64,000 nucleotides of DNA, taken from positions 2,332 through 66,331 of IMG/VR virus record IMGVR_UViG_2833692911_000002. One strand, written 5' to 3'. This document shows, in pieces, positions 8,881 through 61,324 of the stretch (positions within the stretch are counted from its first letter, which is position 1; each line of letters begins with the position of its first letter). The notes under the pieces were generated by a model that had not been told where the DNA came from, made no database searches, and worked only from the letters and a program-made list of their open reading frames with translations. Both the position numbers and the translations under genes were made by a program. This stretch comes from a virus (lineage: Duplodnaviria; Caudoviricetes).

Positions 8881-9459
8881 ATGGCCAAGATTGGCGTCAG
8901 AGTTGAAGCGACCGAAGAGAACACCCAGCAGCGCGATTTCACCAACCTGCCGAATGGCGACTACCAGCTTGAGATCAGCGCGTCCGAGATCAAGGAAAAG
9001 AACAAGGATACCCGCGACCACGCCATCAATCTGAGCGTGACAATAGACGTCCTTGCTCCCGAGGAACTCAAAGGCCGCAAGGTCTTCAACAACTACAATC
9101 TGCAGCATCCAAATCCTCAGACGCAGGAGATCGGCCAGCGCCAATTTGCCTGCCTACTGCGCTCACTCGGCCTCAACGAGGCTCCTGAAGATTCTGATGA
9201 ATTGCATTTCATCTCGTTCTTTGCCCGCATCGGAATGGGCAAGGACAGCAAGGAGAAAAATGCCGACGGTACCCCGAAGTACGCGGCGCGCAACGAGTTG
9301 AAGAAGTACTATTACCCTGATGAGGGCAACCTGCCTGAGCCGAAGGTCGATGCTGCGCCAGCCGCAGCCAACGACAATCGCCGCACCGCAGCCAGCAACG
9401 ACAACAAGCCTGCCGCTGCGGCCGCTGGCACGACGCGCCGGCCCTGGGGCAGCAAGTAA
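8881..9459 (+). CDS. DUF669-like ssDNA-binding protein
   Basis: LPNGDYQLEI...GRKVFNNYNL...RNELK; Ala-rich tail ending PW; sits next to Sak4. Confidence 0.75.
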   Translation: MAKIGVRVEATEENTQQRDFTNLPNGDYQLEISASEIKEKNKDTRDHAINLSVTIDVLAPEELKGRKVFNNYNLQHPNPQTQEIGQRQFACLLRSLGLNEAPEDSDELHFISFFARIGMGKDSKEKNADGTPKYAARNELKKYYYPDEGNLPEPKVDAAPAAANDNRRTAASNDNKPAAAAAGTTRRPWGSK

Positions 9460-9522: not shown

Positions 9523-10572
9523 ATGCACCTTGTCGTCCACAAGGAAGACCTGACGCGTGCGCTTGCGGCCACAACGAAGGTCGTCGAGGCAAGATCCACC
9601 ATTCCCATCCTGTCGAGCGTGCAAGTTGCGGCCGCAGGTGAGGGCCTTGCGATCACCGCAACTGACCTCGATATTGTCGCCACCGCAGGCGTACCTGCTG
9701 AGGTCAGCAAGCCAGGCAACATCTGCGTCAGCGCGAAGCTGCTCAACGACATCGCACGCAAGGCAACCGGCGACATCACCATGACGCTGGATGGTGACAA
9801 GCTTCTGGTGAAGTCCGGACGGTCGCGCTTTTCTCTTGCTACGCTGTCAGCAGATGACTTCCCAACGCTCGGCAACGAAAAGTTCGACGCTGAATTCGAG
9901 ATCGATTTGGCCGCGCTGTTCGCGCCGGTTTCGTTTGCGATCTCGACAGAGGAAACACGCTATTATCTGAACGGCGTGTTCTTCAGGGGCGGCAAGTCAG
10001 AAGCGGTCGCCACCGATGGCCACCGTCTCGGGCGTCACATCGGCCCGGATCTGCCAGCCTTCGAGGGCATTATCGTCCCGCGCAAGACAGTCGGCTTGCT
10101 TCCGAAGGGCAAGGTGCAGGTCGCAGTCAGCCAGCAGAAAATCCGCATTGTGTCGGACGACGTGCGCATTACGTCAAAGCTGATCGACGGCACATTCCCC
10201 GACTACGAGCGTGTCATTCCGAAGAGCAACAAACGCGTCGTTACCGTCGACCGGGACGCGCTCATGAAGGCGTCGGATCGCGTGTCGACCGTGTCGTCTG
10301 AGCGTGGCCGTGCCGTAAAGTTCAGCATTGCGCCAGGTAGCATCGCGCTTGCTGTTGCGGCCGGCGAGGCATCAGCAAATGACGAAGTCGAAGCGGAGTA
10401 CAGCGGCGAGCCGATGGATATCGGTTTCAACGCCGCCTACGTCCGCGACGTTCTGAGCGTATTGCCATCGGGTCCTGTCAAGCTGGCTTTGCAGGATGGT
10501 GGCACACCGGGGCTGATCACGTCCGACGGCTTCGAGGGGCTGACGCTCGTTTGCATGCCGATGAGGGTGTAG
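9523..10572 (+). CDS. dnaN: DNA polymerase III beta sliding clamp (phage copy)
   Basis: ATDLD, ETRYYLNGV, ATDGHRL, LIDGTFPDYERVIP, IGFNAAYV, MPMRV. Confidence 0.95.
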   Translation: MHLVVHKEDLTRALAATTKVVEARSTIPILSSVQVAAAGEGLAITATDLDIVATAGVPAEVSKPGNICVSAKLLNDIARKATGDITMTLDGDKLLVKSGRSRFSLATLSADDFPTLGNEKFDAEFEIDLAALFAPVSFAISTEETRYYLNGVFFRGGKSEAVATDGHRLGRHIGPDLPAFEGIIVPRKTVGLLPKGKVQVAVSQQKIRIVSDDVRITSKLIDGTFPDYERVIPKSNKRVVTVDRDALMKASDRVSTVSSERGRAVKFSIAPGSIALAVAAGEASANDEVEAEYSGEPMDIGFNAAYVRDVLSVLPSGPVKLALQDGGTPGLITSDGFEGLTLVCMPMRV

Positions 10573-11569: not shown

Positions 11570-12106
11570 ATGCCGCTTGTAGCACGCACGCCGCTTGTCG
11601 CTGCCAACGACAACAACCCGCGCAGTCCCGAGTTCGACCGCAAGCTGCTGGCTTACGAGCCGGCTTTGCGAAGACTGGCACGAAAGATCACCAAGAACGA
11701 CGACGCGGCAGACGAGCTGTTTCAGTCGGCGATGGTCGTCATGTTGCGCCGTCATCGCGAATGCCGCATCGAGACCTTCTGGACGTGGGCGGTCCTCTGC
11801 GTTCGGGGGACCGCGCAGGAGTTCGTTCGCACCAATTCCACCAAGTCGCGCTCTGCAGAAATCTGCAGTCTCTCGGCATTCGAAGAATTGCCGGGTTCCA
11901 CTGATCCGCATCAGGAGGAGGGCACCGACTTGTCGCGCGTTGTCTCCCTGCTGGAAGGCCGCAATGGCACTATGCTGATGCGCAGGGCGATGGGTGAGAC
12001 GCTGGAAGCCATTGGCAACGACCATGGCCTCACAAAGGAGCGCGTGCGCCAGATCGTCATCAATGAGCGGGCGAGGGTGCTTGGGCTGCTGCGGGAGGTG
12101 GCTTGA
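11570..12106 (+). CDS. Sigma-70 family (ECF-like) factor
   Basis: Region 2-like DDAADELFQ; region 4 GETLEAIGNDHGLTKERVRQI. Confidence 0.75.
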   Translation: MPLVARTPLVAANDNNPRSPEFDRKLLAYEPALRRLARKITKNDDAADELFQSAMVVMLRRHRECRIETFWTWAVLCVRGTAQEFVRTNSTKSRSAEICSLSAFEELPGSTDPHQEEGTDLSRVVSLLEGRNGTMLMRRAMGETLEAIGNDHGLTKERVRQIVINERARVLGLLREVA

Positions 12107-12451
12107 ATGCGCGTGGTGGTTACAGGCGGGCGCGATTATTGCGAGACCGAGCGCACCTTTGCCGCTCTTGATGCGGTGCATGAGCGGACGCCTATCACAG
12201 TCCTTATCGAGGGCGAGGCTCGCGGCCTTGATGTCAGAGCCAAGGCGTGGGCGGTACGTCGCGGAGTGCCTTACGAAGCATATCCAGCCGACTGGGAAAC
12301 TCTCGGCAAGGCTGCTGGCGGAATCAGGAACCAGCAGATGATCGACCAAGGAAAGCCTGACTATGGCGTCGTCTTCCCAGGTGGACGCGGCACAGCAGAT
12401 ATGCGCGGCCGGTTGATAGCGGTCGGCATCCCGTTCGAAGAGGTGAAGTAA
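12107..12451 (+). CDS. DUF2493 / SLOG family protein
   Basis: RVVVTGGRDY...EGEARGLD...AGGIRNQQM...FPGGRGTADM. Confidence 0.85.
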   Translation: MRVVVTGGRDYCETERTFAALDAVHERTPITVLIEGEARGLDVRAKAWAVRRGVPYEAYPADWETLGKAAGGIRNQQMIDQGKPDYGVVFPGGRGTADMRGRLIAVGIPFEEVK

Positions 12452-14205
12452 TGCTTTCCTTACGCCACTACCAGGAAGAAGCAGAAAACGCCGTTTTCGA
12501 CTATTGGTCAACGACTGCTGGCAATCCGCTCGTTGATCTTGCGACCGGCTGCGGCAAGTCGCTGCTCATGGCTTCGCTCATCAAGAGGCTGGTCGAAGGC
12601 TGGCCGGACATGCGCATCCTTGTCGCTACCCACGTCGCTGAACTGATCGAGCAAAATTACCTTGAACTGCTCGGCATTTGGCCGTTTGCGCCGGCGGGGA
12701 TTTTCTCTGCTGGCCTTGGTCGTCGTGACGCGCGTAGCCAGATCATCTTCGCAGGCATCCAGACCGTGCACAGCAAAGCTTCGCTCATCGGGCATATCGA
12801 CGTGCTGATGGTGGACGAGTGCCATTTGATCCCTGCCAACAGCAACACCATGTACGGCCGCTTTATCGCGGCCCTGCGCGCCATCAATCCAGACATGAAG
12901 ATCCTGGGGCTCACCGCCACGCCTTACCGGCTGGACACAGGCCGGCTGGATGAGGGCGACGATCGGCTGTTCGACCAGATCGTCTACACCTACGGAATCG
13001 CCGACGGTGTTGCTGACGGATATCTTGCGCCGCTTTCGTCCAAGGCTACTGCCACGACGTTCGACATGAAGGGCGTCGGCAGGCAGGGCGGCGATTACAA
13101 GCAGTCAGCGTTGCAGGCTGCCGTGGACAAGATGGACGTCACTCGCTCCGCCGTAGATGAGATCGTTGCCAAAGGCGCCGACCGCAAGTCGTGGCTTTGC
13201 TTCTGCTCGGGTGTCGAGCACGCCGAGCACGTGCGGGACGAGATCCGTTCGCGTGGCATCTCCTGCGAAATGATTAGCGGCGAAACGCCGAAGGACGAGC
13301 GCCGGCGCATCATCGAGGACTTCAAGTCTTACAAGATCCGTGCGCTCACCAACAACTCGGTGCTGACGACCGGCTTTAACCACAAGGGCGTTGATCTGAT
13401 CGCAGCCCTTCGCCCGACGTTGTCGGTGTCGCTTTACGTGCAGATGATGGGCCGCGGCACCCGCGTGATATACGCGCCAGGCATGCCGCTGGACACGCCT
13501 CAGGAGCGCATTGCTGCGATCAAGGCCGGTCCGAAACCGTCGTGCCTCGTGCTGGATTTCGCCGGGCTCGTTGACAAGCATGGACCGGTCGACATGGTGC
13601 AGCCAAAGACGCCCAACAAGGGCGACGGAGAGGCGCCTGTGAAGGTGTGCCCGTTCGACGTCGAGGATAAGAACGGACGTTTTGGCTGTGGCGAGAAGGT
13701 GCACGCCTCCGCACGTTCGTGCTCTTGCTGTGGATATGAGTTCGACATCGATGACAGCCCGAAGATTACTGCGACGGCGGCCGACACGCCAATCATGTCA
13801 ACGGCTGAGCCAGAACCCCGCACCGTCACGTCGCGCAGCTTCTACTACCACGAAGGGAAGGGCGACAAGCCGCCGTCGGTGAAGGTCAGCTACATGGTTG
13901 GCATGACGGCGATCAACGAGTGGGTTTGTCCGCAACATAGCGGATTCCCGAAGTCGAAGGCCGACCGATACTGGCGCGCGCACGGCGGCAAGATGCCGTT
14001 TCCAAAGACGGTGCTGGAATGGATCGAGCGTCAGTCCGAACTGGCCGACACGGTCGAGATCACGGTGAAGCCACGCCAGAAGTATTGGGACGTCGTGGGG
14101 CACGTGGTTGGTGCGGCAAATGATAACAGGGTGTCGCCGGCTAATGACAATGTGCCGGAAGACGAGGATTGGCGGGTGCTGATGGACGATGACGTGCCTT
14201 TTTGA
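12451..14205 (+). CDS. Superfamily II DExH helicase
   Basis: ATGCGKS, DECH, LTATP, QMMGRGTR; zinc ribbon; two ANDN motifs in tail. Confidence 0.92.
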   Translation: MLSLRHYQEEAENAVFDYWSTTAGNPLVDLATGCGKSLLMASLIKRLVEGWPDMRILVATHVAELIEQNYLELLGIWPFAPAGIFSAGLGRRDARSQIIFAGIQTVHSKASLIGHIDVLMVDECHLIPANSNTMYGRFIAALRAINPDMKILGLTATPYRLDTGRLDEGDDRLFDQIVYTYGIADGVADGYLAPLSSKATATTFDMKGVGRQGGDYKQSALQAAVDKMDVTRSAVDEIVAKGADRKSWLCFCSGVEHAEHVRDEIRSRGISCEMISGETPKDERRRIIEDFKSYKIRALTNNSVLTTGFNHKGVDLIAALRPTLSVSLYVQMMGRGTRVIYAPGMPLDTPQERIAAIKAGPKPSCLVLDFAGLVDKHGPVDMVQPKTPNKGDGEAPVKVCPFDVEDKNGRFGCGEKVHASARSCSCCGYEFDIDDSPKITATAADTPIMSTAEPEPRTVTSRSFYYHEGKGDKPPSVKVSYMVGMTAINEWVCPQHSGFPKSKADRYWRAHGGKMPFPKTVLEWIERQSELADTVEITVKPRQKYWDVVGHVVGAANDNRVSPANDNVPEDEDWRVLMDDDVPF

Positions 14206-14295: not shown

Positions 14296-14802
14296 ATGAG
14301 CAGAAGAAACATCTGGTTCATCAGTGATACCCATTTCGGGCACAACAACATTATTGGATATTGCCGCCTGCACTTTTCGTCAGTGGATGAAATGGAAAGC
14401 GCGATCATCGAGAACTGGAACAATGCAGTGAGGCCTGATGATCTTGTTTATCATCTTGGCGACTTCGCTTGGAAAACTGCCGACGCGAAACGCGTTCGCC
14501 CACTGCTGAATGGTGCAATTCGTCTCATCGTGGGTAATCACGATGACATACCATCGCTTGCTGCAGCGGGTCTGTTCCAACGCATCTATCTATGGAAGCA
14601 ATTCCGCGACCTCGGCTTTACCGCTTCCCATATTCCCATGCGCCTCGATCAGCTTCGCCATGGCGCGAAAAACCTGCACGGCCATGTGCACGGCGATCTC
14701 ACCGGGCTAGAACCATTCCATCGCGATGTTTCGGTTGAGAGCATCGGCTACAAGCCGGTGCATATGGACGAGATCGTTGCATGGGCAGGAGCCACAGCAT
14801 GA
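14296..14802 (+). CDS. Calcineurin-like metallophosphoesterase
   Basis: SDTHFGH, HLGD, GNHD, HGHVH. Confidence 0.9.
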   Translation: MSRRNIWFISDTHFGHNNIIGYCRLHFSSVDEMESAIIENWNNAVRPDDLVYHLGDFAWKTADAKRVRPLLNGAIRLIVGNHDDIPSLAAAGLFQRIYLWKQFRDLGFTASHIPMRLDQLRHGAKNLHGHVHGDLTGLEPFHRDVSVESIGYKPVHMDEIVAWAGATA

Positions 14803-15320
14803 CCAAACCAGCCAACGACAACTATTTGGCCGCCGACGTCGCCAACCTAGAAGCGCTTTTCGCCGATATGCTCGCCGCCTATCCGGAGTTGGAGGCGGAT
14901 GAAGAACTTCGCGCTGATATGCTGGAAGGCGAAACCAACTTCCACGCTGTCCTGACGCGCCTTGTCAATGGCGAGCGCGATGCCGATAGCCTGGCAAAGG
15001 CCGTGGCCGGCCGCATCTCCGACCTGCAAGCGCGGAAGTCTCGCGCCGAGCGCCGCAAGGAGGCCATGCGCAGCTTGATGTTCAAGCTGCTGAAAGCCGC
15101 AGGGGTACCGCGCGTGCCGCTCGCCGAGGCAACAATCTCCATCGGCAAGAAAGCTGCATCTGTTGAGATCATCGACGAGGCGCTGCTGCCTGCGGAAGTG
15201 GTGCGCATCACCACCGCGCCGGACAAGAAGGCCACCGCCGACCTTCTCAAGGCGGGCACAGACGTGCCGGGAGCAAAGATAGGTGAGGCGGGTGAGCAGC
15301 TGTCGGTCCGCGTCGCATGA
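14799..15320 (+). CDS. Siphovirus Gp157 family protein
   Basis: Coiled coil then VEIIDEALLP...PDKKA...VPGA. Confidence 0.75.
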   Translation: MTKPANDNYLAADVANLEALFADMLAAYPELEADEELRADMLEGETNFHAVLTRLVNGERDADSLAKAVAGRISDLQARKSRAERRKEAMRSLMFKLLKAAGVPRVPLAEATISIGKKAASVEIIDEALLPAEVVRITTAPDKKATADLLKAGTDVPGAKIGEAGEQLSVRVA

Positions 15321-15873: not shown

Positions 15874-16090
15874 TAGCCATTACATCATCGTGGCCCGCAA
15901 CGACGAGACCGGTGAAGTCCAACTACCGCTCGAGAACATGACGCTCTACGGCATGGGAAAAGACCCTGAAACAGGCGAGTACGAGGAGGAGAGCTTGGTC
16001 CGAACATGCGCCGCAACATATGGGCATGAGTGGACGCTAACACTCTACGGTCCTATCGGCGCATCGTATGGCGGCACCGCCAAAAGCTGA
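15866..16090 (+). CDS. Hypothetical protein
   Basis: ATG after GGAGG, overlaps upstream stop. Confidence 0.6.
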   Translation: MSSSHYIIVARNDETGEVQLPLENMTLYGMGKDPETGEYEEESLVRTCAATYGHEWTLTLYGPIGASYGGTAKS

Positions 16091-16178
16091 CCAATATCTG
16101 CATACATTTTTTGGACACCCGCCGCGCCACCAACGCGGCTTCCGCTTCGGCGGGAACACCACAGTCCGAGGAGACAAT

Positions 16179-16745
16179 ATGAACCCATTACCAGAGGGGC
16201 GCTTTGGCGCCATACTGGCGGACCCGCCTTGGTCTTTCAGAACCTACGCCAACGACAATGTCGCGCCCGCTCGAGGTGCGCAGCCTTATGCCGTGATGTC
16301 GCTTGCCGATATTGCGGCGCTGCCCATTTCCGACGTCGCTGCAAAGGACTGCCTGCTCTTCATGTGGACGGTCAGTCACCTCCAGCGTGAAGCTTTTGAT
16401 GTTGCAGCATCGTGGGGCTTCAAGCCTGTCTCGTTGGCTTTCATCTGGGATAAGGGCCGCATGGGAATGGGCTACTGGACCCGGCAGGAGGTCGAGGTCT
16501 GCCATCTTTTCAAGCGCGGCAAGCCGAAGCGGCTGAGCCGCGGAGTGCGGTCGGTCATCCGCGCGCCTCGCCGCGAACATTCCCGCAAGCCTGATGAGCA
16601 GTACGGGCGCATCCAATCCTTGGTCGCTGGTCCGTATCTTGAGCTGTTTGCGAGACAGGCGTGGCCAGGTTGGTCTGCCTGGGGCAATCAGGTGGGGAAG
16701 TTTGAAGCGGCCAAAGATAACGCGGAGATGCAGGCATGCGCGTGA
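16179..16745 (+). CDS. MT-A70 family N6-adenine methyltransferase
   Basis: ILADPPW, LFMW, HSRKP, YLELFAR, WGNQ; start set by CACCAC-GAGGAGA leader. Confidence 0.9.
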   Translation: MNPLPEGRFGAILADPPWSFRTYANDNVAPARGAQPYAVMSLADIAALPISDVAAKDCLLFMWTVSHLQREAFDVAASWGFKPVSLAFIWDKGRMGMGYWTRQEVEVCHLFKRGKPKRLSRGVRSVIRAPRREHSRKPDEQYGRIQSLVAGPYLELFARQAWPGWSAWGNQVGKFEAAKDNAEMQACA

Positions 16746-17728
16746 GCACGGATGCACGAATGCATTATCACCCGGCCGCGACACTAGACCTCTTTTATAC
16801 CTACCTCTGGCGTGATGCTTCAGGAGTGCCTTTTTATGTCGGCAAGGGTAAAGGAAGGCGCGCTTGGGTCACAACCCAGCGATCGAAGTTGTTCAAGGAA
16901 ATACACGCGCGGGGCGGATGCACGGTAGAGATAATTGACTACTTCATCCACGAGTCGCAGGCCCATGCTCATGAAATGGCGTTGATTTCGCGCTACGGTA
17001 GACTGGACAACGATTCCGGAAGCTTGGTCAATCTAACAGATGGCGGAGAGGGTAACTCTGGATGGGTTGCTAGTGAAGAGACGCGAGCCAAAATATCAAA
17101 GGCTGCTATTGGAAGGACTGCCTCTGTCTCCACAAAAGCGCTTATTTCCGCCGCCCACAAAGGACGAAAACTACGGCCAGAGCATGTGGCAAAAATAGCA
17201 AGAGCGAACACTGGAAGAAGGCACACAGAAGAGGCGAAAGCAAAAGTTAGCGCTGCCAACCTAGGGAATACATATGCGCTAGGGACTGTTCGTAGCGCAG
17301 ACACTAGAGCCAAGATATCGGCGTCGAAGAAAGGGCAAGCCTCAAGAACGGGGGCGATCCTGTCTACCGAGACCCGCGCCAAGATAGCCGCGTCACTTCG
17401 AGGTCGCAAATTAAGCGAGGACCATCGCGCGAAACTCTCAGCTGTAGGTTCAGGCGTGCCGAAAACATCCGAACATGTCTCAAGCGTGATGATGGCGCTC
17501 CATCTGGTTCCTCCTCGGGCTGATAGTTCGTCCGGGTACAAAGGAGTTTCCAGCCAGCGTGGTCGGTGGGCTGCAAGGATTACCGTTAATGGAGTTCGAC
17601 GGAACGTTGGGCGCTACGGCTCTGCTGAAGATGCCGCTAGAGCTTATGATTCAGCAGCTATCGAAGCATGGGGGCGAGGGAATTGCTATCTGAATTTTCC
17701 TGACGATCACGTGGGGGAAAAAGCATGA
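16736..17728 (+). CDS. Free-standing homing endonuclease, GIY-YIG-like + NUMOD3 repeats + AP2 domain
   Basis: FYTYLW...FYVGKG; repeated ETRAKIS; SGYKGV...WAARI...AARAYD...LNFP. Confidence 0.85.
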   Translation: MRVSTDARMHYHPAATLDLFYTYLWRDASGVPFYVGKGKGRRAWVTTQRSKLFKEIHARGGCTVEIIDYFIHESQAHAHEMALISRYGRLDNDSGSLVNLTDGGEGNSGWVASEETRAKISKAAIGRTASVSTKALISAAHKGRKLRPEHVAKIARANTGRRHTEEAKAKVSAANLGNTYALGTVRSADTRAKISASKKGQASRTGAILSTETRAKIAASLRGRKLSEDHRAKLSAVGSGVPKTSEHVSSVMMALHLVPPRADSSSGYKGVSSQRGRWAARITVNGVRRNVGRYGSAEDAARAYDSAAIEAWGRGNCYLNFPDDHVGEKA

Positions 17729-18108
17729 CCAAACTCCCAGGACAGCCAGTTCTGCCAATAACGCCAACAGCCGACGAAAATGACAATCCAACCACCTGCA
17801 TGTGCTGTGGTCGCATTGCGATCGGCATTGGCCGCGCCATCAAACAGGGTGCGCGCGTCATCGACAACGGATTTCTCTGCAAACAATGCATCGTAGCCGT
17901 GGGGGATTTATCCAAGATGGACAGATTGTCAATCTACGAACTCAAGGCACTTGATGCCGGCGTTGATGCTGTTGGTGAATACATTGCCGAGCACGGCGTT
18001 ACGGAACTCGCACATTTCGATGAGCTCATGCAGCGGATGATGGTGAAGGCGGCGATCACCGGTTTTGCCAAGGGCGTGCGTGAGGCCCTCAAGGAGGCGC
18101 CGTTTTGA
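17725..18108 (+). CDS. Hypothetical zinc-finger protein
   Basis: CMCC...CKQC; ends EAPF. Confidence 0.7.
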   Translation: MTKLPGQPVLPITPTADENDNPTTCMCCGRIAIGIGRAIKQGARVIDNGFLCKQCIVAVGDLSKMDRLSIYELKALDAGVDAVGEYIAEHGVTELAHFDELMQRMMVKAAITGFAKGVREALKEAPF

Positions 18109-19349
18109 TGGAGGGTAAGATGCAGCACGCAAATGATAATCGTAACGGCCTGCGCTTTCTGTCCGTATGTTCGGGCATTGAGGCCGCGTCGGTCGCTTGG
18201 CACCCACTCGGCTGGAGAGCCGTGGCGTTCTCGGAGATCGAGAAATTCCCGTCAGCCGTACTGAAGCACCATTATCCGGATGTGCCCAACCTTGGCGACT
18301 TCACCAAGATCGACACCAAGACGCTCGGCCGCGTCGATATTCTCGCTGGCGGCACGCCTTGCCAAGCATTCAGCGTTGCCGGCCTACGCCAATCTCTCGC
18401 CGACGCGCGAGGCAACTTGTCACTCGAATTCGTGAGGCTTGCGCATGAGCTTGCAGCTAACAATGGACTTCGGAACGTCGTCTGGGAAAACGTCGTCGGC
18501 GTTCTCAGCACCAAAGACAACGCCTTCGGCTGCTTCCTCGCCGGACTTGTGGGAGCAGATTCCCCCATCGAACCACCGAGAAGAGGTAAGTGGGCGCGTC
18601 ACGGTATGGTCTCTGGACCTAAAGGACGGGCCGCGTGGGCTGTCAAAGATGGGCAATTTTTCGGAGTGGCCCAACGACGCCGCCGTGTGCTCGTTGTCGC
18701 AGATTTTGGAAACGGGGCAGATCCCGCAGCGGTTCTTTTTGAGCCCGAAAGCATGTTCAGGGATACTCCGCCGAGCCGAGAAGCGGGGAAAGGTATTACC
18801 CACCCAGTTGCACCAAGCCTTGTTAGCAGCGGCCGGGGAATAGAGCGACCTGGGGACCCTCGCGGGCAGGATCCGGTTGTTGCTGTCACTGTCGCCATCC
18901 GAGGTCGCGACGGCGGTTCGACAGCAGAACTAGGTGGAGATATTGCTACTGCATTGCGTGCTAGCCAGGGTGGTGGTGACAAACCGCATGTGTTGGCGTT
19001 CGATTGCAAGGCGTCAGGCCAAAGCGGCTTTGGTGTCGGTGAAATCGCAGGCACTCAGCGGGCGATGGGACACAAGGACAGCCACACCAATGGAGGAGGG
19101 CATCAGGCCGCCATGGTGGGCTCAGCTGTCCGCCGCCTAACGCCCGTCGAGTGCGAGCGTCTACAGGGCTTCCCCGACGGCTACACCGACATCCCATGGC
19201 GCGGCAAGCCAACGAGCCCGGACGGCCCACGATACAAGGCGCTCGGCAACAGCTGGGCAGTGCCGAAGTTCGTCTGGCTCGGTCAGCGCATCGCGCGGTT
19301 CATGCCAGCCAACGACAATCAGGAGACCCCCATTGCAAACGCCGCTTGA
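18105..19349 (+). CDS. DNA cytosine-5 methyltransferase
   Basis: SVCSGI, GGTPCQ, WENV, QRRRR, RLTPVECERLQGFP, LGNS. Confidence 0.93.
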   Translation: MMEGKMQHANDNRNGLRFLSVCSGIEAASVAWHPLGWRAVAFSEIEKFPSAVLKHHYPDVPNLGDFTKIDTKTLGRVDILAGGTPCQAFSVAGLRQSLADARGNLSLEFVRLAHELAANNGLRNVVWENVVGVLSTKDNAFGCFLAGLVGADSPIEPPRRGKWARHGMVSGPKGRAAWAVKDGQFFGVAQRRRRVLVVADFGNGADPAAVLFEPESMFRDTPPSREAGKGITHPVAPSLVSSGRGIERPGDPRGQDPVVAVTVAIRGRDGGSTAELGGDIATALRASQGGGDKPHVLAFDCKASGQSGFGVGEIAGTQRAMGHKDSHTNGGGHQAAMVGSAVRRLTPVECERLQGFPDGYTDIPWRGKPTSPDGPRYKALGNSWAVPKFVWLGQRIARFMPANDNQETPIANAA

Positions 19350-21534
19350 ACTAGCGCAACACTACGCCGCCGAAGGATGGCCGGTGTTTCCATGCCGTTC
19401 GCACGCCGAGGAGCATGTCGACCAGGCCACCGGCGAGATCATCACGCTCGGCGAAAAGACGCCTTTGACTCCAAATGGCTTTAAGGCAGCAACGCGCTTT
19501 CCGCGCATCATCGAGAGATGGTGGTCGGACTGGCCGGATGCTGCCGTTGGTTTGCCGACAGGCGAAAAGACCGGCTTCTTCGCGCTCGACATCGACAACA
19601 AGCCGGGCGGTGCAAACGGCTTCGACTGGCTGGCGGAAATGGAAGCAGAGCATGGCCCGCTGCCCGATACGGCGCGCGTGACGAGCCCGAATGGTGGCCT
19701 TCATATATACTTCAAGTACGTCGTCGGCACGCGCAACCGTGGCGCTCTTGGTGCTGGCGTGGATATCCGGTCAGAGGGTGGTTACGTGCTGGCCGCTGGA
19801 AGCACGATGGCCAACGGCCGGTCCTACAAGTGGGAAACGGACACGCGCGAGATCGCGGACGCACCGGCGTGGCTGCTCGACCTGCTGTTGCCGAAGTCGG
19901 CGCCTGCTCACACCCAGTACAGTCTGTCGGCCGCGACCAACAACGCCTATGTGGATGCGGCCGTCGATCGCGAGCTGGCAGACCTTGCCGGCGCGCCTAT
20001 GGGCACGCGCAACAATGCGCTCAACGACGCCGCGTTCTCGATCGGCACTATCGTAGGCGCCGGCGCGCTCGGCGAGGCCGAGGCACGCGCCATGCTGCAG
20101 GACGTAGCTCGCGGCTGGGGCAGGGACTGGTCACGCTGCTGCAAGACGATTGAGAACGGCCTAAAGGCTGGTATCCAGAACCCGCGCAACATTCCGGAGC
20201 CTGACTTCCCGGCGCAGGACAACACGCGCCTGGTGGACATCACGCGGATGATCCAGCGGGGGCTTGAGAAAGGCAGGCTGCGTGAGCAGGCGGCTGCGGT
20301 GGATGAGAATGTTGTGGTGGAAGCCGCACCGCCGAAAGAGGAGTCACCGATTGGCGACATTGATCCTGCCAACGACAACGCGCCTCCGTCCTCACCAATC
20401 ACAGCCACTGCATTCAAGTGGATCGATCCCAAGACCCTGCCGCGGCGCGAGTTCGCCTACGGCTCGCACTTCATCCGCAAATATGTGTCCGTCACGGTAT
20501 CGCCGGGCGGGCTTGGTAAGACGTCGAGCAGCATCGCCGAGGCGCTCGCCATGGTGTCGGGCAGGGCGCTGCTTGGCACGAAGCCCCCGAAGCGTCTGCG
20601 CACGTGGATATTCAACGCCGAGGATCCGCGTGACGAAATGGAGCGGCGTATCATGGCCGCGTGCATCCACTACAAGCTGAAGCCTGCTGACCTCGAAGGG
20701 CATCTCTTCCTGGACAGCGGCCGCGAGCAGGAGCTTTGCGTCGCCATCGAAGACAAGAAGGCTGGCGTTCGCATCCAGCAGCCGATTGTTGAGGCGGTGG
20801 TCGAGCAGATCGAGCGCAACGTCATTGACGTGATGATTGTAGACCCGTTCGTTTCCACGCATGGCGTCAACGAGAACGACAACGGCGCGATCGACAAGGT
20901 GGCAAAGCTCTGGGCGCAGATTGCCGACTACACCAACTGCTCGATCGACATCGTGCACCATCTGCGCAAGGTGGCCGACCGAGAAGCCACTGTCGAAGAT
21001 GCCCGTGGTGCGGTGTCACTGATCGGTGCGGCGCGTTCAGTCCGGGTGCTCAACCGCATGTCCGAAGAGCAGGCAGGAGAGGCTGGCATCGATAAAGCTG
21101 ACCGCTTCGGCTATTTCTATACCACATACGGGAAGTCCAATCTGACGCCGCTTTCGCACAAGGCAGAGTGGCGGCATCTGGTCTCGACGCCACTCGGAAA
21201 CGGGACGGGCCTTGCTCAGCCGCAGGACTTTGCGCCTGTCGTAACCGAATGGCAGTGGCCTAGCGCCGAGGATGTCGCGGGCGACCTCACAGAAGACCAG
21301 CGCGCGTCCATTCTCGCGGCCGTGAGCGCGTCCGACTACAAGAAGTCACCGAAGGCCAAGAACTGGGTCGGAGGCGCTGTAGCGTACGCTGTGGGGCTGG
21401 ATTTGGACGATAACGTGGAGCGCAAGCGAGCGGCCAGCCTTGTGACTGCCCTGATGCGTGAGGGCGCGCTTGTCGAGCGGGAGGAACGGGACCCGGTGCG
21501 GCGAGAGCTGGCGGTGTTTGTGAGGGCGGCTTAG
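19333..21534 (+). CDS. Bifunctional primase-polymerase fused to AAA_25 (RepA-like) helicase
   Basis: WPVFPC, ALDID, GGLHIYF, DIRSEGGYV; Walker A PGGLGKT; IVDP; HHLRK. Confidence 0.9.
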   Translation: MQTPLELAQHYAAEGWPVFPCRSHAEEHVDQATGEIITLGEKTPLTPNGFKAATRFPRIIERWWSDWPDAAVGLPTGEKTGFFALDIDNKPGGANGFDWLAEMEAEHGPLPDTARVTSPNGGLHIYFKYVVGTRNRGALGAGVDIRSEGGYVLAAGSTMANGRSYKWETDTREIADAPAWLLDLLLPKSAPAHTQYSLSAATNNAYVDAAVDRELADLAGAPMGTRNNALNDAAFSIGTIVGAGALGEAEARAMLQDVARGWGRDWSRCCKTIENGLKAGIQNPRNIPEPDFPAQDNTRLVDITRMIQRGLEKGRLREQAAAVDENVVVEAAPPKEESPIGDIDPANDNAPPSSPITATAFKWIDPKTLPRREFAYGSHFIRKYVSVTVSPGGLGKTSSSIAEALAMVSGRALLGTKPPKRLRTWIFNAEDPRDEMERRIMAACIHYKLKPADLEGHLFLDSGREQELCVAIEDKKAGVRIQQPIVEAVVEQIERNVIDVMIVDPFVSTHGVNENDNGAIDKVAKLWAQIADYTNCSIDIVHHLRKVADREATVEDARGAVSLIGAARSVRVLNRMSEEQAGEAGIDKADRFGYFYTTYGKSNLTPLSHKAEWRHLVSTPLGNGTGLAQPQDFAPVVTEWQWPSAEDVAGDLTEDQRASILAAVSASDYKKSPKAKNWVGGAVAYAVGLDLDDNVERKRAASLVTALMREGALVEREERDPVRRELAVFVRAA

Positions 21535-24045: not shown

Positions 24046-24519
24046 ATGCCCAAAGCCACCAGCCAAACCACCCGCATCAACGGCAAACGTGTCGTCATCC
24101 GTACTTCGCCGAAAGGCAAGGTTACCGTTGCAGACGCGCCCATCAAGGAAAGCGAAGGGCAGGCGGCTCAGGTTCGCGCCCTGCGGTCCCTGCCAGAGTT
24201 CGGCCGCCAGTTCCTGCTTGCTGGTGACATGAACAGCGCAAAGCGCGGGCCACGTGCCCAGGTGGATGCGATCGCAACCGGCATGACGCCGGGTGAAGCT
24301 GACCTGCGGATCTACATCAGAGGTGGCAAGCTGCGGATGATCGAGAACAAGGTCGGCAAGGGCAGGCTATCTCCGGCACAGGTTGAGCGTCATGCATCGC
24401 TGGCGCGGCTCGGGCATCCAGTTGAGGTGGTGCGGTTCACATCAACGGCAGAAGCGGCAAGCAAGGCGGTGGCGCTGGTCAAAGGCTGGCTCGCCGATAA
24501 CGACAATCACCCAACGTAA
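24046..24519 (+). CDS. VRR-NUC domain nuclease
   Basis: GMTPGEADL...IENKVGKGRLSPAQ. Confidence 0.85.
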   Translation: MPKATSQTTRINGKRVVIRTSPKGKVTVADAPIKESEGQAAQVRALRSLPEFGRQFLLAGDMNSAKRGPRAQVDAIATGMTPGEADLRIYIRGGKLRMIENKVGKGRLSPAQVERHASLARLGHPVEVVRFTSTAEAASKAVALVKGWLADNDNHPT

Positions 24520-24553
24520 GCGCAGCAGCAGTAACACCACAGGGGAGACGAGA

Positions 24554-25498
24554 ATGGACGAAGAAGACCAGATTATCGACGCCACTGGCAGGGTAGCCTT
24601 CACCGGAGACCAGCCGCATCCATATAGGACTAACACCCGCTTCCGTAAGGTGGATGGGAAGTGGGAGCCGATCGAGGAAACAAAAACAAGAGACGTTCTC
24701 AAAACCCCGCCGACTGCACAGGAGAGGGCCGATGGCCGAGAGAGAGCAAAAACCAAGGCGGCAGACGAGGCGAGACAAATGGCGAAGGTTCGGAGGGCGA
24801 TAGTGAAGCGACAGTCAATTGGCGATCCCTCTTGCATTCAGAGCCGTGGCGAGGATTTCCCGTTGCTTGAGGCGCTTCGCCGTGATGAGCGCGAGGATCT
24901 TGTAGCGGTCGTCCTTCGCTATCGTCGGCTTGTGGCGCTCTGTGAGGCCGAGCCGTTGAAGGGTTTGGACTACAGCAAGGCTGACGGCGGCGAAGTAGTA
25001 AGGGAAACTAAACGCCTCACACCAGAAGCGGACATTGACCGAGCCGCCGCTTGCGACTGGAAGGAAATCCCGAGTGGCGAAATCAAAATCTCTACGAAGG
25101 TCAAGAAGAGCAAAGGATCGCATTCGATACCGCCACGGAGGACTGTGGTCGTAGCCAACGACAACGTGGCTTCAGGTAGCGTGATCAAGACGGAAAGCCT
25201 ACACGTGAAGATCACCGATGAAATCTTGAACCAACACATCGATGCCAAACCGATACTGGCCGAACTCCGGTCATCCCTTGGCCCGCTGGTCGAACCTTTC
25301 GAGGACGCTGTGCTGGGAGGGCAAACGTATACCGAGATCGGCAAGAAGGCCGGTGAGCGGACACAGCCGTCGGTCGCCGGTAGGGCTGTAGTCGGCACCG
25401 CGATCGGCTTCATCAGCGTTAAGTGGCAGGAGATTGATAGGCGAGAGGCGCGGCTTGCCGAGCTGGCCCTAAGCCGCTTCCGAAACCGCGCAGCATAG
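24554..25498 (+). CDS. Hypothetical protein, candidate late-gene regulator
   Basis: Last gene before tRNA/packaging region; C-terminal HTH-like GQTYTEIGKKAG. Confidence 0.55.
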   Translation: MDEEDQIIDATGRVAFTGDQPHPYRTNTRFRKVDGKWEPIEETKTRDVLKTPPTAQERADGRERAKTKAADEARQMAKVRRAIVKRQSIGDPSCIQSRGEDFPLLEALRRDEREDLVAVVLRYRRLVALCEAEPLKGLDYSKADGGEVVRETKRLTPEADIDRAAACDWKEIPSGEIKISTKVKKSKGSHSIPPRRTVVVANDNVASGSVIKTESLHVKITDEILNQHIDAKPILAELRSSLGPLVEPFEDAVLGGQTYTEIGKKAGERTQPSVAGRAVVGTAIGFISVKWQEIDRREARLAELALSRFRNRAA

Positions 25499-25633: not shown

Positions 25634-25710
25634 CGTGGAGTAGAGCAGTCTGGTAGCTCGTCAGGCTCATAACCTGAAGGCCGTGAGTTCAAATCTCACC
25701 TCCGCAACCA
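25634..25710 (+). tRNA. tRNA-fMet (CAT)
   Basis: Cloverleaf; C1-A72 mismatch; TCAGG-CTCATAA-CCTGA anticodon arm; encoded CCA. Confidence 0.93.
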
Positions 25711-25931
25711 ATCCCATGCGCGTTCTCCTCCGCTTGCATGGTGATCGTGCGGCTGGTTGAGTGTGACCCTGTTAGCGAAAGCTTGGCAGGTCGTGCACGC
25801 TCCCAGCCGCTTTGAGTTTCACAGCCTCGCGTCCGTCCTGCGCAGATGCCACTGAATGACCGCTTGTGTTTCCTGATAGGAGCAAGCGCCATGGGTGGAT
25901 TGGACAGCCCTTGGGCAAGGCAAACTTTCAA

Positions 25932-26007
25932 GCCGGCATAGCTCAGTAGGTAGAGCGCCTCCTTTGTAACGAGGATGTCGTGGGTTCAATTCCTGCTGCC
26001 GGCACCA
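25932..26007 (+). tRNA. tRNA-Thr (TGT)
   Basis: GCCGGCA/TGCCGGC acceptor stem, TTTGTAA loop, GGTTCAATTCC, ACCA. Confidence 0.9.
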
Positions 26008-26011
26008 ATCT

Positions 26012-26089
26012 CTGTGTGTAGCTCAGTCTGGTCAGAGTACCGCACTTGGACTGCGGGAGCCGCTGGTTCGAATCCAGCCACGCAGACCA
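26012..26089 (+). tRNA. tRNA-Pro (TGG)
   Basis: CTGTGTG/CACGCAG acceptor stem, CCGCA-CTTGGAC-TGCGG, GGTTCGAATCC, ACCA. Confidence 0.88.
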
Positions 26090-57565: not shown

Positions 57566-58819
57566 ATGCCTCTACCCATCGAAGAACTACGCCGAAGAGC
57601 CGACGCCTACAAAGAGCACGGCACGTTGAAGAAAGCTGCTGCTGCCCTTGGGATCGGCAAGTCCGCGCTGCACGACAGCATCAAACGCGCCGCTGAGGCT
57701 GGCCTCCTCGGCACGGAGCCTGTTTTGCCCGGCTTCCGCATCAGCAAGATCAGCAACACACCAAGTGGCACGTTCATCCAGCAGACGCAGGAGCGCGGCG
57801 AGAAGTTTGCCGTACCCAATGGCCATGTTGTCAAAGGCGTGTCGGCGCTCGTCGATGGTGAAGGCCGTGTTATCCAGCAGTGGCAGAAGACGGCAGTCGG
57901 TGCAGAGGGCCAAATAGCGGCTTTCCAGGCGATGGTCGACGGCCTGAAGGAAGACCTGCCGCGGGTTACGATCATGCCAGCGCCGGCGCATGTCGAGGAA
58001 GACCTTCTGAACCAGTTCGTTGTCACCGACAGCCATTTCGGTATGCTGGCCCATCGCGAAGAAACAGGCGCCGACTATGACCTGAGGCTGGCCGAGCAAT
58101 TGCTGCTGGATTGGTTTGCCGCCGCTGTGGCGGGTGCTCCGCAAGCGCACACAGCGGTTTTAGCGCAGCTCGGCGACCTGTTGCACCATGACGCCCTCGA
58201 AAGCGTGACGCCAGCGCACAAGCACGTCCTCGATGCCGATTCTCGCCTTCATAAAGTTGTTCGCGTCGTCATTCGCACACTGCGGCGTGTCGTCGACATG
58301 CTGCTTCAGAAGCACAAGCATGTCCATGTCGTCATGGCGTCGGGAAACCACGACCCAGCCTCATCGGTATGGGTGCGCGAACTGCTGGCGACGATTTATG
58401 AGAACGAGCCGCGCGTGACCGTCGATACCAGCCCGATGCTCTACTACGCATACAAGTGGGGAGACACGGCGCTGTTCTATCATCACGGTCATAAGCGCGG
58501 CGTGGCCCAGGTCGACGCAACGCTCGCAGGCATGTTCCGTGAGATGTTCGGTCAGTCGAAATATGCCTTCGCGCATGTCGGCCACCTGCACAGCGACGAG
58601 GGCCGCAAGTCGGCCCTGATGTATGTCGAGCGCCACGAAACGCTTGCAGCGCCTGACGCCTATGCTGCCGGTGGTGGCTGGCTGTCCGGGCGATCAGCCA
58701 AGGTCATCACATATTCGCGCCGCTACGGCGAGGTGGCGCGCTCCACGCTGCGTCCGGAGATGGTTGCGGGTCGGTATTCGGCTGCGAATGACAATGAGCC
58801 GGTGAGGGCGGTGGCGTGA
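57566..58819 (+). CDS. HTH plus calcineurin-like phosphoesterase
   Basis: KAAAALGIGKSAL; DSHFG, LGDLLH, GNHD, HHGH, GHLH. Confidence 0.85.
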   Translation: MPLPIEELRRRADAYKEHGTLKKAAAALGIGKSALHDSIKRAAEAGLLGTEPVLPGFRISKISNTPSGTFIQQTQERGEKFAVPNGHVVKGVSALVDGEGRVIQQWQKTAVGAEGQIAAFQAMVDGLKEDLPRVTIMPAPAHVEEDLLNQFVVTDSHFGMLAHREETGADYDLRLAEQLLLDWFAAAVAGAPQAHTAVLAQLGDLLHHDALESVTPAHKHVLDADSRLHKVVRVVIRTLRRVVDMLLQKHKHVHVVMASGNHDPASSVWVRELLATIYENEPRVTVDTSPMLYYAYKWGDTALFYHHGHKRGVAQVDATLAGMFREMFGQSKYAFAHVGHLHSDEGRKSALMYVERHETLAAPDAYAAGGGWLSGRSAKVITYSRRYGEVARSTLRPEMVAGRYSAANDNEPVRAVA

Positions 58820-59043
58820 GCGATTACGCTATTGAGTTGGTAGCAATCGAACTACACAAGCAGTCGCAGTCTGTGGAGCTAGGGCGCAGAAAAATAAAGT
58901 GGCTTCAACTTTCTGCCTGTCAAAGACAATGGTGGAGAGATGCGGCTAGACGCGTCGCCTCGGAGCAGTAGGCAGTTCAGGAATAACCATGACGCCGCTG
59001 GCGACCAACCGGCGGCAAACACCACTACAAGAGGAGATTGAAC

Positions 59044-59514
59044 ATGATACCTGACGCAAAAACGGACAGAGAATACCAATCCTACGAAGGCGAGCGCCAG
59101 ACAAGGAGCCTGGCCAACGACAACAAACCCCACAACCACGCCGCAGCCATTAACCTATTTGCAGCCGACTGCCACGCAGCGAGCCGCAGGGCAGGATGGT
59201 ACACGGACCTCGCCACTGGCAAGGCGCTGGACCGCAACGTGCCCGAAATGCTTTGCCTGATACACAGCGAGATCAGCGAAGCGATGGAAGGCTATCGCAA
59301 GTCCAAGCCAGGCAAGGCGCTGATGGACGACAAGCTGCCGCACCGCCCTATGGCTGAGGTCGAGCTTGCCGACGCCATGATCCGCATCGGTGATCTGGCA
59401 GCGTTCCTTGGCTATGACCTCGGTGGCGCGATCGTGGAGAAGATGGCATTCAACGCCAACCGTCCCGACCATAAGATCGAGAACCGGCTTAAGGCTGGTG
59501 GGAAGGCGTTTTGA
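59044..59514 (+). CDS. MazG-like nucleotide pyrophosphohydrolase
   Basis: LIHSEISEAME...EVELADAMIRIGD...EKMAFN. Confidence 0.85.
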   Translation: MIPDAKTDREYQSYEGERQTRSLANDNKPHNHAAAINLFAADCHAASRRAGWYTDLATGKALDRNVPEMLCLIHSEISEAMEGYRKSKPGKALMDDKLPHRPMAEVELADAMIRIGDLAAFLGYDLGGAIVEKMAFNANRPDHKIENRLKAGGKAF

Positions 59515-59792
59515 TGAGCATTGAGCAAATTGCGAGAGATCAATACCGCGAAGGAATGAGTTCTGGGGCGTTGGCTCGGCATGTGGCCGGAATACTACCT
59601 GCGGATAGCCTTGTCCGTTGGATGCTGGAGGACATGCTCGGCGCATCTAACTTTGCAAGCTATGACCGGCATATGATCTTTTTGGATTTTGAGAAGGTCA
59701 GCTCAAATGACGCTCTGTCGTCAAAGATGAGAAGCTTCCATCGCGTCAATAGGCGCAAAGTCGACTCTGCGCCAGTAAGGGAGGCCGTGTGA
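59511..59792 (+). CDS. Hypothetical protein
   Basis: Coupled ORF. Confidence 0.55.
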   Translation: MMSIEQIARDQYREGMSSGALARHVAGILPADSLVRWMLEDMLGASNFASYDRHMIFLDFEKVSSNDALSSKMRSFHRVNRRKVDSAPVREAV

Positions 59793-61324
59793 TGGAGCTT
59801 CACCAACTCATGGAATACAGCCCGATTGAAACCACCACCTTCGGCCCGCTCGACAAATACGTGGCCGCGAATGACAACGTGCTAGGCGCAAAATCTGTCG
59901 CACTAAACCACCTTGTCGCATCCTGTCCTGTGTCCCAGGACAACGGACAATACATCGGCCTGACCCGCAACAGGCCGGCCGAACCACCCCGCACCGGCGA
60001 CTTTATGCAAACATATACCGGCCGCCAATACTGGCCGATGGACCCGCGCCCGCACGAAGTGTACATCGAGGACATTGCGCATTCGCTCAGCCTGCAATGC
60101 CGATATGCAGGTCACGTGAAAAAATTCTACTGCCCAACACCGGACCAACGGGTACTGACTGACGATCTGCGGTGGGTTCCAGCTGGTGACCTAAAGGTTG
60201 GCGACGGACTATTGGCTTTTGACGAAGAGCCTAGTCGCGTGGGAGGCTTCGGCAAGAACAGGCGTCGTCTAAAGCCAGCGAGCGTTACGATCGCGCAAGC
60301 AGAGAAGCGTCGCACCATTCGTTTAGTTATGAGCGATGGTTCGGACGTAGTCTCATCAGATGAGCATCCTTGGCTGGTAGCGACTAAAGTCTCTGGCAAT
60401 CAAAAGTGGCTCACTGCTGGCGCAATCGCGGACGACTTAAGGCTTGGCCGAAAGAGGCACATGCATAAGTTCTTCGAACCTTGGGCTGCGCGCAGTGGGC
60501 GGGAAGCTGGCTGGCTAGCCGGCATATATGACGGTGAGGGATATCTTTCTATCAAGAATAGACGAGGAACGCAGCTTGGCGTCGCACAGAAGCCAGGAGT
60601 TGTACTCTCCGAGATTGAGCGGCTACTCAAGAACTTCGGTTACAGCAACTACCGATATGCGCAGACGGGCAATGCAGGTTCTGGCGTGATTAGCCTCCAG
60701 AGCCAGGGTGGATTTGCCACAATTGCGCACCTTCTGGGCAGCCTGCAGCCTATACGGCTAGTATCGAAGTTTGTGAATTCTCTTCGCTCTGGGGAATTTG
60801 ACAAGCAGCTTCAAAGCGACGGCGTCCCTCTTGAAATTGTTGCCGCATATGACGAAGGCGAGCAGTGGGTTGCCGGACTTGAAACAAGCTCGCACACCTA
60901 TTTCTGCGAGGGATTCGGCGCGCACAATTGCGTCGCCGAGCACTCCGTCCTCATCGCTCGCTATCTCGCGGCCAAGCACGCGCCTGAGGTTGCCTTGGCT
61001 GGCCTTCTGCACGATGCACCGGAGGCGTACTGCGTGGATATTCCGAGACCGCTCAAGCCCTACCTGACGAACTACCGGGCGATCGAGCAGGACAACTGGC
61101 TGGCTATCGCTGCACGGTTTGATTTGCCGAAGGAGTTGCCGAGGGCGGTGCATGACGCAGACAACCGCATCATCGCCGACGAGCTTGTTAACCTGCGCGA
61201 TATGCCATGGCACGCAAAGCACGACAGGCCGCTTGGCGTGAAGCTGCGGTACTGGTCGCCGGAGGAAGCTGAGCTCGAATTCCTGGCGACCTTTGATGCG
61301 TTGATGGCGGGGAGGGCAGCTTGA
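59789..61324 (+). CDS. HD-domain phosphohydrolase (YfbR-like) interrupted by an intein
   Basis: IEDIAHSLS..CRYAGH..FY / CVAEHS...LLHDAPEAY..D. Confidence 0.88.
   Translation: MMELHQLMEYSPIETTTFGPLDKYVAANDNVLGAKSVALNHLVASCPVSQDNGQYIGLTRNRPAEPPRTGDFMQTYTGRQYWPMDPRPHEVYIEDIAHSLSLQCRYAGHVKKFYCPTPDQRVLTDDLRWVPAGDLKVGDGLLAFDEEPSRVGGFGKNRRRLKPASVTIAQAEKRRTIRLVMSDGSDVVSSDEHPWLVATKVSGNQKWLTAGAIADDLRLGRKRHMHKFFEPWAARSGREAGWLAGIYDGEGYLSIKNRRGTQLGVAQKPGVVLSEIERLLKNFGYSNYRYAQTGNAGSGVISLQSQGGFATIAHLLGSLQPIRLVSKFVNSLRSGEFDKQLQSDGVPLEIVAAYDEGEQWVAGLETSSHTYFCEGFGAHNCVAEHSVLIARYLAAKHAPEVALAGLLHDAPEAYCVDIPRPLKPYLTNYRAIEQDNWLAIAARFDLPKELPRAVHDADNRIIADELVNLRDMPWHAKHDRPLGVKLRYWSPEEAELEFLATFDALMAGRAA
60131..60928 (+). 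mobile_element. Intein (266 aa) with LAGLIDADG motif
   Basis: N-terminal Cys (CPTPDQRVLT), block B SDEHPW, LAGIYDGEG, C-terminal HN followed by Cys+1. Confidence 0.9.

Follow-up and report, generated by a model that had tools for sequence, protein, structure and literature searches.

The stretch analysed here, called the window throughout, is 64,000 nucleotides long and corresponds to bases 2332-66331 of a single 66,331-bp IMG/VR record (IMGVR_UViG_2833692911_000002), which is classed there as a complete provirus. It encodes a C5 DNA methylase, an MT-A70 methylase, an SbcD/Mre11-like exonuclease and a helix-turn-helix (HTH)-like protein whose C-terminal tails resemble the ssrA tag, the peptide that transfer-messenger RNA (tmRNA) adds to stalled chains. 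The tetrapeptide Ala-Asn-Asp-Asn (ANDN) recurs in these and in further genes of the window. Of the named phages, those most closely related to it are Sinorhizobium phage NV1.1.1 and phage 16-3, a classic temperate phage of Rhizobium (Sinorhizobium). Related prophages are present in Agrobacterium, Sinorhizobium, Rhizobium, Brucella/Ochrobactrum, Mesorhizobium, Devosia and other Hyphomicrobiales, and an Agrobacterium harbours the closest of them (93% identity for the SbcD-like protein). The tetrapeptide test in the window rests on a crude set of 91 genes. Copies in relatives were counted in 79 loci plus the genome itself, with residue contexts counted as 368 unique ones, and the host background was sampled from 400 kb of an Agrobacterium chromosome (362 genes, 128,145 residues).

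Tails of the methylases, the exonuclease and the HTH-like protein

The C5 methylase matches PF00145 (C-5 DNA methylase, E 1.3e-31) and carries ANDN near both ends (Table 1). Its tail consists of ANDN followed by nine residues ending in Ala-Ala and equals in length the Agrobacterium tmRNA tag ANDNNAKEYALAA; the tag-like geometry pointed out in a preliminary description of the window is borne out by the host tags, in which ANDN is followed by 8-9 residues. Among the best 120 homologues, ANDN is found within the final 20 residues in 74 and within the first 30 residues in 75, and the protein ends in Ala-Ala in 92 and in Ala in 108. In an AlphaFold2 model of the 413-residue form, the final helix spans residues 384-398 and is followed by a low-confidence tail, the predicted local distance difference test score being below 50 at residues 1-12 and 404-413, where both ANDN sites lie. 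The model, made for one of the four proteins, predicts an unstructured and accessible tail.

The part of the gene that encodes this tail also contains, at bases 19321-19335, a Shine-Dalgarno-like AGGAGA together with the start (TTG at 19333) of the downstream prim-pol open reading frame (ORF). The segment QETPIANAA is unusually conserved and follows differing upstream sequences in relatives, perhaps because of the overlapping ribosome-binding site and start of prim-pol. The ANDN of the tail lies upstream of this overlap, which touches only the residues that come after it.

The SbcD-like protein (417 residues) matches phrog_704, 'DNA repair exonuclease', with E 8.6e-129, and its E. coli phage orthologues go by the name 'phosphoesterase'. 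Its tail overlaps no other gene. Orthologues were collected from 33 Rhizobiales genome loci, and among the 30 unique ones 21 contain ANDN and 26 end in Ala; the residues following ANDN are variable, and some orthologues lack ANDN yet end in AAAA, GAAA or RQAA. A copy in a Pseudomonas prophage ends in KVGAA without the ANDN element, and the orthologue of E. coli phage J8-65 stops at ...SPEMLE, without a tail.

The MT-A70 methylase (PF05063, E 2.4e-22) has AKDN in its tail. Since orthologues carry VANDNAEVRACA at the same place, where AANDNYPAAPAQAGAA and AANDNSADLFERVA are also found, the AKDN of the window is an ANDN decayed by one residue (N to K). The Ala-Ala end is present in 9 of 13 orthologues and a final Ala in 12. 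Between the two methylase genes lies a NUMOD3/AP2-domain homing-endonuclease-like gene (16736-17728, + strand), which from its ATG onward shares 10 bases with the MT-A70 tail.

The 116-residue HTH-like protein (5565-5915) is weakly assigned, its HTH_23 match (E 0.0055) lying under the Pfam cut-off. Its very end reads AVNDYALRSERVAA-stop, with VNDY in the last element, and an exact AANDN is located 22 residues before the end. All 34 orthologues contain ANDN and 32 of them end in Ala-Ala, with conservation of the VN[DE]YALR...VAA element; judging from these sequences, the HTH-like tail is a conserved variant of the tag layout.

All four tails translate as first described. They had been presented as complete tags, which is correct in the strict sense for the C5 and SbcD-like proteins, whose tails have the exact layout and a [P/A]ANDN identical to the start of the host tags, but not for MT-A70 (AKDN) and the last element of the HTH-like protein (VNDY), which are not identical to it. 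The final residues are NAA in C5, VAA in the HTH-like protein, AVA in the SbcD-like protein and ACA in MT-A70, the last two being variants of Ala-Ala. Each tail is read in frame from its own ORF to its own stop, unlike a tag added by tmRNA, and ARAGORN found no tmRNA gene in the window.

A selected peptide motif coupled to terminal alanines

The codon pattern of the tetrapeptide, GCNAAYGAYAAY, has 19 matches in the window, whereas 100 dinucleotide-preserving shuffles gave 0.24 on average and never more than 2. All 19 copies are in frame on the coding strand of stop-to-stop ORFs of 89-797 codons, with none in a non-coding frame, and ANDN is the most enriched tetrapeptide of the gene set (14 observed versus 0.13 expected, Poisson 3e-24). 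Fifteen of the 19 lie no more than 30 residues from a protein terminus (binomial 1e-7). No copy is present in the 33-kb structural module (25.2-58.7 kb), and among crudely called window genes of at least 80 residues 14 of 31 end in Ala in the early region versus 3 of 39 in the structural region.

The motif is equally frequent in the named relatives, with 20 copies in phage NV1.1.1 and 18 in phage 16-3, where the bearers include the N-terminus of xis (MRVAANDN) and the tails of p044, of the Cas4-type exonuclease p085 and of the methylase p096. Variants are rare: relatives contain 406 ANDN against at most 30 of any other ANDx, and 46 SNDN. Ala or Pro precedes the motif in 297 of the 368 unique contexts, and in 128 of them the second residue after it is Pro.

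Third codon positions of ANDN vary, and in relatives the two Asn positions use AAC and AAT at 65/35 and 64/36, against a background of 65/35; with third positions free and Asn codons at background frequency, selection acts on the peptide. Some features would suit a signal in DNA or RNA (a binding or modification site, or a mobile repeat) or a by-product of composition or overlapping starts, namely the nucleotide sequence GCCAACGACAA[CT] shared by 9 of the 19 window copies, a mild skew of the Ala and Asp codons at the motif (GCC 52% versus 32%, GAC 83% versus 64%) and the overlap of the C5 tail with the start signals of prim-pol. Besides the free third positions, however, this explanation is opposed by the reading-frame census, in which 446 copies from the 79 loci and the genome fall into ORFs of 60 codons or more and 4 into shorter ORFs, by the shuffled expectation of 0.24, and by the overlap with a next gene, which occurs only after ANDN and only in some genes. 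We regard it as extremely improbable and already close to refuted.

ANDN is coupled to terminal alanines. The number of residues that separate ANDN from the stop is most often 7, 8 or 9 (27, 23 and 19 unique tails). Where ANDN is followed by 6-12 residues (89 tails), the end is Ala-Ala in 59 and VA or CA in 16, and the last residue is Ala in 80. In the host sample, Ala-Ala ends are found in 11 of 362 genes (3.0%) and Ala ends in 57 (15.7%). The commonest ends of the phage tails are VAA (22), AAA (13) and EAA (8). Grouping the proteins of the relatives into 68 clusters, 10 of the 17 in which ANDN predominates end in Ala-Ala versus 6 of the 51 others (Fisher P 2.6e-4), showing that both halves of the tag go together in unrelated proteins, even where ANDN is located at the opposite end.

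The host tags match the motif. The tmRNA genes identified by ARAGORN in five host genomes with related prophages encode ANDNKAQGYALAA, ANDNNAKEYALAA, ANDNYAEARLAA (two genomes) and ANDNNKAPVALAA, all five starting with ANDN, continuing for 8-9 residues and ending in LAA. The adaptor SspB (PF04386) is encoded in all five genomes (E 1e-46 to 4e-48, above cut-off), about 300 bp or less from the permuted ssrA gene in four and about 14 kb from it in the fifth (L113-L122), and structures of SspB are available in the PDB for Agrobacterium (2NYS) and Caulobacter (2QAS, 2QAZ). No SspB domain was found in the phage itself. These host genomes (3.9-8.4 Mb) contain the codon pattern 35-64 times each; in four of them the tmRNA gene itself accounts for one match, and many other matches form runs of 5-15 within about 8-55 kb, which are taken to be prophage regions. 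The sampled Agrobacterium chromosome has no ANDN in its 128,145 residues. In E. coli, an excerpt of PMC9963277 states that the tag's initial seven residues are bound by SspB and the C-terminal ones by ClpX, and a section of PMC9393093 gives the Caulobacter tag as AANDNFAEEFAVAA and reports that deletion of sspB slows the loss of an ssrA-tagged protein. The proposal that the tails are genetically fixed full degrons is partly supported: judged by the homologue counts, the host tags and the presence of SspB, they look like copies of the tag that are encoded in the genome and under selection, and not like chance resemblances, while 'full' applies strictly to two of them.

Table 1. Positions of ANDN motifs and tag-like tails in the window
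Feature	Gene	Position	Strand	Remarks
Excisionase-like HTH protein, two PANDN	1-306	238-249 and 55-66	-	ANDN in 12/13 orthologues
70-residue protein, ANDN	1655-1867	1670-1681	-	AANDNGRRR-stop, four residues from the end; kept in 11/12 orthologues
HTH-like protein, mid-protein ANDN		5727-5738	+	PANDNNPDR
HTH-like protein, tail		5835-5915	+	Reads AANDNADDLAAGQAVNDYALRSERVAA-stop; exact AANDN, then conserved VN[DE]YALR...VAA element
DUF669 protein, C-terminal tail	8881-9459	9367-9378	+	AAANDN, then ASNDN; ANDN in 45/51 orthologues
Sigma-70-like factor, AANDN at residue 12	11570-12106	11603-11614	+	ANDN in 26/42 orthologues
SNF2/ResIII helicase, tandem in C-terminal tail	12451-14205	14116-14151	+	AANDNRVSPANDN; protein ends DDDVPF
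Gp157-family protein, PANDN at residue 11	14781-15320	14811-14822	+	Orthologues: ANDN 25/28, Ala end 26/28
MT-A70 methylase, internal ANDN	16068-16745	16248-16259	+	Residue 61, within the MT-A70 domain; belongs to the 4 non-terminal copies
MT-A70 methylase, tail	16068-16745	16707-16745	+	Reads AAKDNAEMQACA-stop
C5 methylase, second ANDN	18105-19349	18129-18140	+	Residue 9 (MQHANDN...), just ahead of catalytic motif I
C5 methylase, tail	18105-19349	19305-19349	+	Reads PANDNQETPIANAA-stop; ends the 414-residue ORF
Primase, PANDN in Prim-Pol/AAA_25 linker	19333-21534	20368-20379	+	Protein ends VRAA
371-residue protein without assignment, VANDN at residue 258	24383-25498	25154-25165	+	Ends NRAA
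SbcD/Mre11-like exonuclease, tail	57566-58819	58781-58819	+	Reads AANDNEPVRAVA-stop
MazG-like pyrophosphatase, LANDN at residue 26	59038-59514	59113-59124	+	
dNMP phosphatase, AANDN at residue 27	59789-61324	59867-59878	+	Ends GRAA
dNMP kinase, PANDN at residue 18	63078-63737	63129-63140	+	Ends EDAA; ANDN in 13/15 orthologues

The tails had been supposed to keep potentially toxic enzymes short-lived. The methylases and the exonuclease do bear tag-like tails, but this view is too narrow, as the motif is also carried by a sigma factor, an excisionase-like protein, a protein of single-stranded-DNA-binding type, a helicase, a primase and enzymes of nucleotide metabolism (Table 1), mostly at N-termini or in linkers. 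Being present on so many kinds of protein, the motif makes the four tails one subset of a family-wide system.

Several bearers and their neighbours have features of their own. The helicase orthologues contain ANDN in 42 of 52 cases, 27 of these with two copies; the window helicase ends in ...WRVLMDDDVPF (14185-14205, + strand), an acidic-aromatic end that in relatives reads DDEVPF, DDFIPF or EWGEIPF and resembles the acidic-aromatic C-terminal tip of the bacterial single-stranded DNA-binding protein SSB. The 70-residue protein has a basic rather than an Ala-Ala ending, which may represent another kind of C-terminal signal. The deoxynucleoside monophosphate (dNMP) phosphatase matches phrog_318 at both ends and is split at residues 239-297 by a LAGLIDADG domain that resembles an intein or the insertion of a homing endonuclease. 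A 385-residue early protein without assignment (6190-7347, + strand; phrog_4317) has an Ala-Ala end here, as in each of its 32 unique orthologues, only 4 of which contain ANDN. A 363-residue ORF (-1044 to 47 in window coordinates, - strand), judged to be the integrase by its location next to the excisionase-like gene, ends in ...NKKPA. Finally, three tRNA genes (Met-CAT, Thr-TGT and Pro-TGG; 25634-26089, + strand) lie between the early and the structural modules.

Proposed adaptor-assisted turnover and competing readings

Taken together, these features make it fairly probable that the tails are genome-encoded mimics of the ssrA tag serving SspB-assisted turnover by ClpXP, and that all four are part of a system found across the 16-3-like temperate phages of Rhizobiales. 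The sequence [Ala/Pro]-Ala-Asn-Asp-Asn would imitate the first residues of the host tag, which are the part read by SspB in E. coli. In Caulobacter as well, the first tag residues are reported to be the part that SspB reads. Each genome places this motif in disordered N- or C-terminal tails or in linkers of about 15 early, replication and regulatory proteins, and the terminal Ala-Ala (VAA, AAA, EAA, RAA or NAA, sometimes VA or CA) would imitate the part that is read by the ClpX pore. In the C5 and SbcD-like proteins, for example, a C-terminal spacing of 7-9 residues between the two yields a complete tag of native length. Host SspB is predicted to dock on ANDN and tether the protein to ClpX, after which ClpXP would engage the Ala-ended C-terminus. 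Early proteins may be short-lived as a result, which could limit the damage from leaky prophage expression and sharpen the switch from early to late functions.

The phage encodes a DnaN-type sliding clamp of its own (9523-10572, + strand; three Pfam beta-clamp domains). Among viral loci with a clamp at least 47% identical to that of the window, 46 of 53 contain at least 3 ANDN, and ANDN is usually their top tetrapeptide, whereas 23 loci with more distant clamps (at most 45% identity) have neither ANDN nor any enriched ANDx. Orthologues of proteins that lack the motif in the window seldom have it elsewhere (clamp 1/71, Cas4 exonuclease 3/55, AAA_24 3/49). Among other phages, the rhizobiophage RHph_X2_26 has no ANDN in the 50 kb read, the rhizobiophage RHph_TM3_3_9 has one in 36 kb, and the Caulobacter temperate phage DMCA has two in 50 kb, both in the tape-measure protein. 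As a separate observation, two of the loci with distant clamps (L059 and L064) contain a peptide LHTVTA or TVTA 3-5 times each, which may be another lineage-specific linear motif.

Several points weigh against SspB-assisted turnover. Exact ANDN is absent from two of the four flagged tails, LAA, the end of the host tags, is rare among the phage tails, and 7 of the 17 clusters in which ANDN predominates have no Ala-Ala end. The helicase ends in DDDVPF, the DUF669 protein in WGSK and the 70-residue protein in GRRR, so that ANDN in these proteins cannot serve a C-terminal Ala-Ala degron. Part of the conservation of the C5 tail may be owed to the start signals of prim-pol, with which it overlaps. 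The view that the alphaproteobacterial adaptor, SspB-alpha, reads ANDN is extrapolated here from E. coli. Moreover, the motif is restricted to a single phage lineage, although its hosts are shared by other phages, and the hosts of RHph_X2_26, RHph_TM3_3_9 and DMCA are expected to have the same tag system; a lineage-specific phage partner fits this restriction equally well.

Such a partner could be a second site on the clamp or an early protein without assignment, on which ANDN would dock while its likeness to ssrA would be coincidental or secondary. The confinement of the motif to loci with a clamp at least 47% identical to that of the window speaks for this, as does RHph_X2_26, which shares the genes for DUF669, the helicase, the primase, the Cas4 exonuclease, AAA_24 and the SbcD-like protein but has neither a clamp match nor, over 50 kb, any ANDN. 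Most bearers are also DNA-transaction proteins. However, enzymes of nucleotide metabolism and the excisionase-like protein bear the motif too, a docking motif of this kind gives no reason for the native tag length or the Ala-Ala ends, and identity over four residues with every host tag checked is unlikely to arise by chance. In addition, motifs that bind the clamp occur on either side of ANDN in the methylase tails of relatives. In 28 tails of relatives, a clamp motif (QADLF, QLSLF or DLPLFG) is separate from ANDN and next to it. A composite tail consists of a clamp-binding motif (one of these three, or ADMF) and ANDN, in an order that varies, followed by Ala-Ala (loci L004-L056); the six composite-tail methylases checked comprise five of the N6_N4_Mtase family and one of the MTS small-domain type, and one MT-A70 orthologue (L029) also has such a tail. 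A regular-expression search for clamp motifs in the window gave no convincing match in its tails. Docking on a phage partner appears unlikely to us on balance.

That ANDN might itself be a canonical beta-clamp-binding motif was considered and dropped, as motifs of the QADLF type stand separately beside it, which makes it unlikely to occupy the clamp pocket, and as it contains no hydrophobic residues.

It is also conceivable that ANDN binds host SspB to other ends, either with about 15 abundant early proteins of one or two copies each saturating SspB and creating a queue at ClpXP, or with SspB tethering proteins to ClpX for remodelling, with the result that other phage or host substrates of ClpXP would be stabilised. 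Most copies in the window are N-terminal or internal, distant from any C-terminal degron, and the clusters that lack an Ala-Ala end (7/17) and the tandem copies of the helicase (two in 27 of 52 orthologues) would suit such a role. According to a passage of PMC12013620, it is established for E. coli that proteolysis by ClpXP-SspB is subject to queueing. Against it, the tight coupling of ANDN to Ala-Ala ends and the native spacing point to real degradation for a large subset of the proteins, and we hold it to be improbable.

Degradation and docking may also be combined. As a tentative extension of SspB-assisted turnover, [A/P]ANDN could be a proteome-wide label that docks about 15 early proteins on SspB and places the early programme under the control of one adaptor. 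In methylases of at least three Pfam families (N6_N4_Mtase, MTS small-domain and MT-A70), where this label is joined to a clamp motif (QADLF) and an Ala-Ala end, binding to the phage clamp and delivery to ClpXP might then be mutually exclusive, an enzyme persisting only as long as it stays on the clamp ('use it or lose it').

Comparison with known systems

Hard-coded ssrA-like degrons were known before on one or two phage regulators. A literature search that covered no supplements and few subscription journals returned no paper connecting phage 16-3 or other rhizobiophages with ssrA-like tags or SspB. New, according to that search, are the lineage-wide repeats of the adaptor half of the tag, about a hundred-fold above expectation and at either end of about fifteen unrelated proteins. 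If SspB indeed reads the motif, these proteins would represent the first large natural set of non-ssrA clients of the alphaproteobacterial adaptor, would provide a simple rule to predict unstable phage proteins in Rhizobiales, and would be a natural counterpart to engineered adaptor-dependent degrons. As phage 16-3 and Sinorhizobium meliloti are an established laboratory pair, the idea is directly testable.

The beta-clamp-binding motif offers one parallel, as it, too, is short and linear, is located in the disordered tails of numerous DNA-transaction proteins and is encountered here in a clamp-encoding phage lineage. The two differ in that ANDN is polar whereas the clamp motif, with the consensus QL[SD]LF, is hydrophobic.

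We know of no report that mycobacteria use SspB. In the integration-dependent immunity of mycobacteriophages, the integrase and the repressor have ssrA-like C-terminal tags (Broussard et al. 2013, as related in part of PMC9635641). Both systems share hard-coded ssrA-like C-terminal tags that destabilise phage regulators via host ClpXP, an effect that is predicted in the present case. However, only two proteins are tagged there, and integration within the repressor gene removes the tag, whereas about 15 proteins have an adaptor-type motif here, and the putative integrase ends in KKPA and not in Ala-Ala.

The closest parallel in layout is the tmRNA tag itself (AANDENYALAA in E. coli, AANDNFAEEFAVAA in Caulobacter), with which the phage tails share two parts, (A)ANDN and a terminal Ala-Ala, and a similar spacing, the host tags having 8-9 residues after ANDN and the phage tails peaking at 7-9. 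Whereas trans-translation attaches the tag to stalled chains, the phage tails are part of their genes and occur on every molecule. Their middle residues are unrelated to those of the tag, their ends are mostly VAA, AAA and EAA and not LAA, and their ANDN half also stands by itself in N-termini and linkers.

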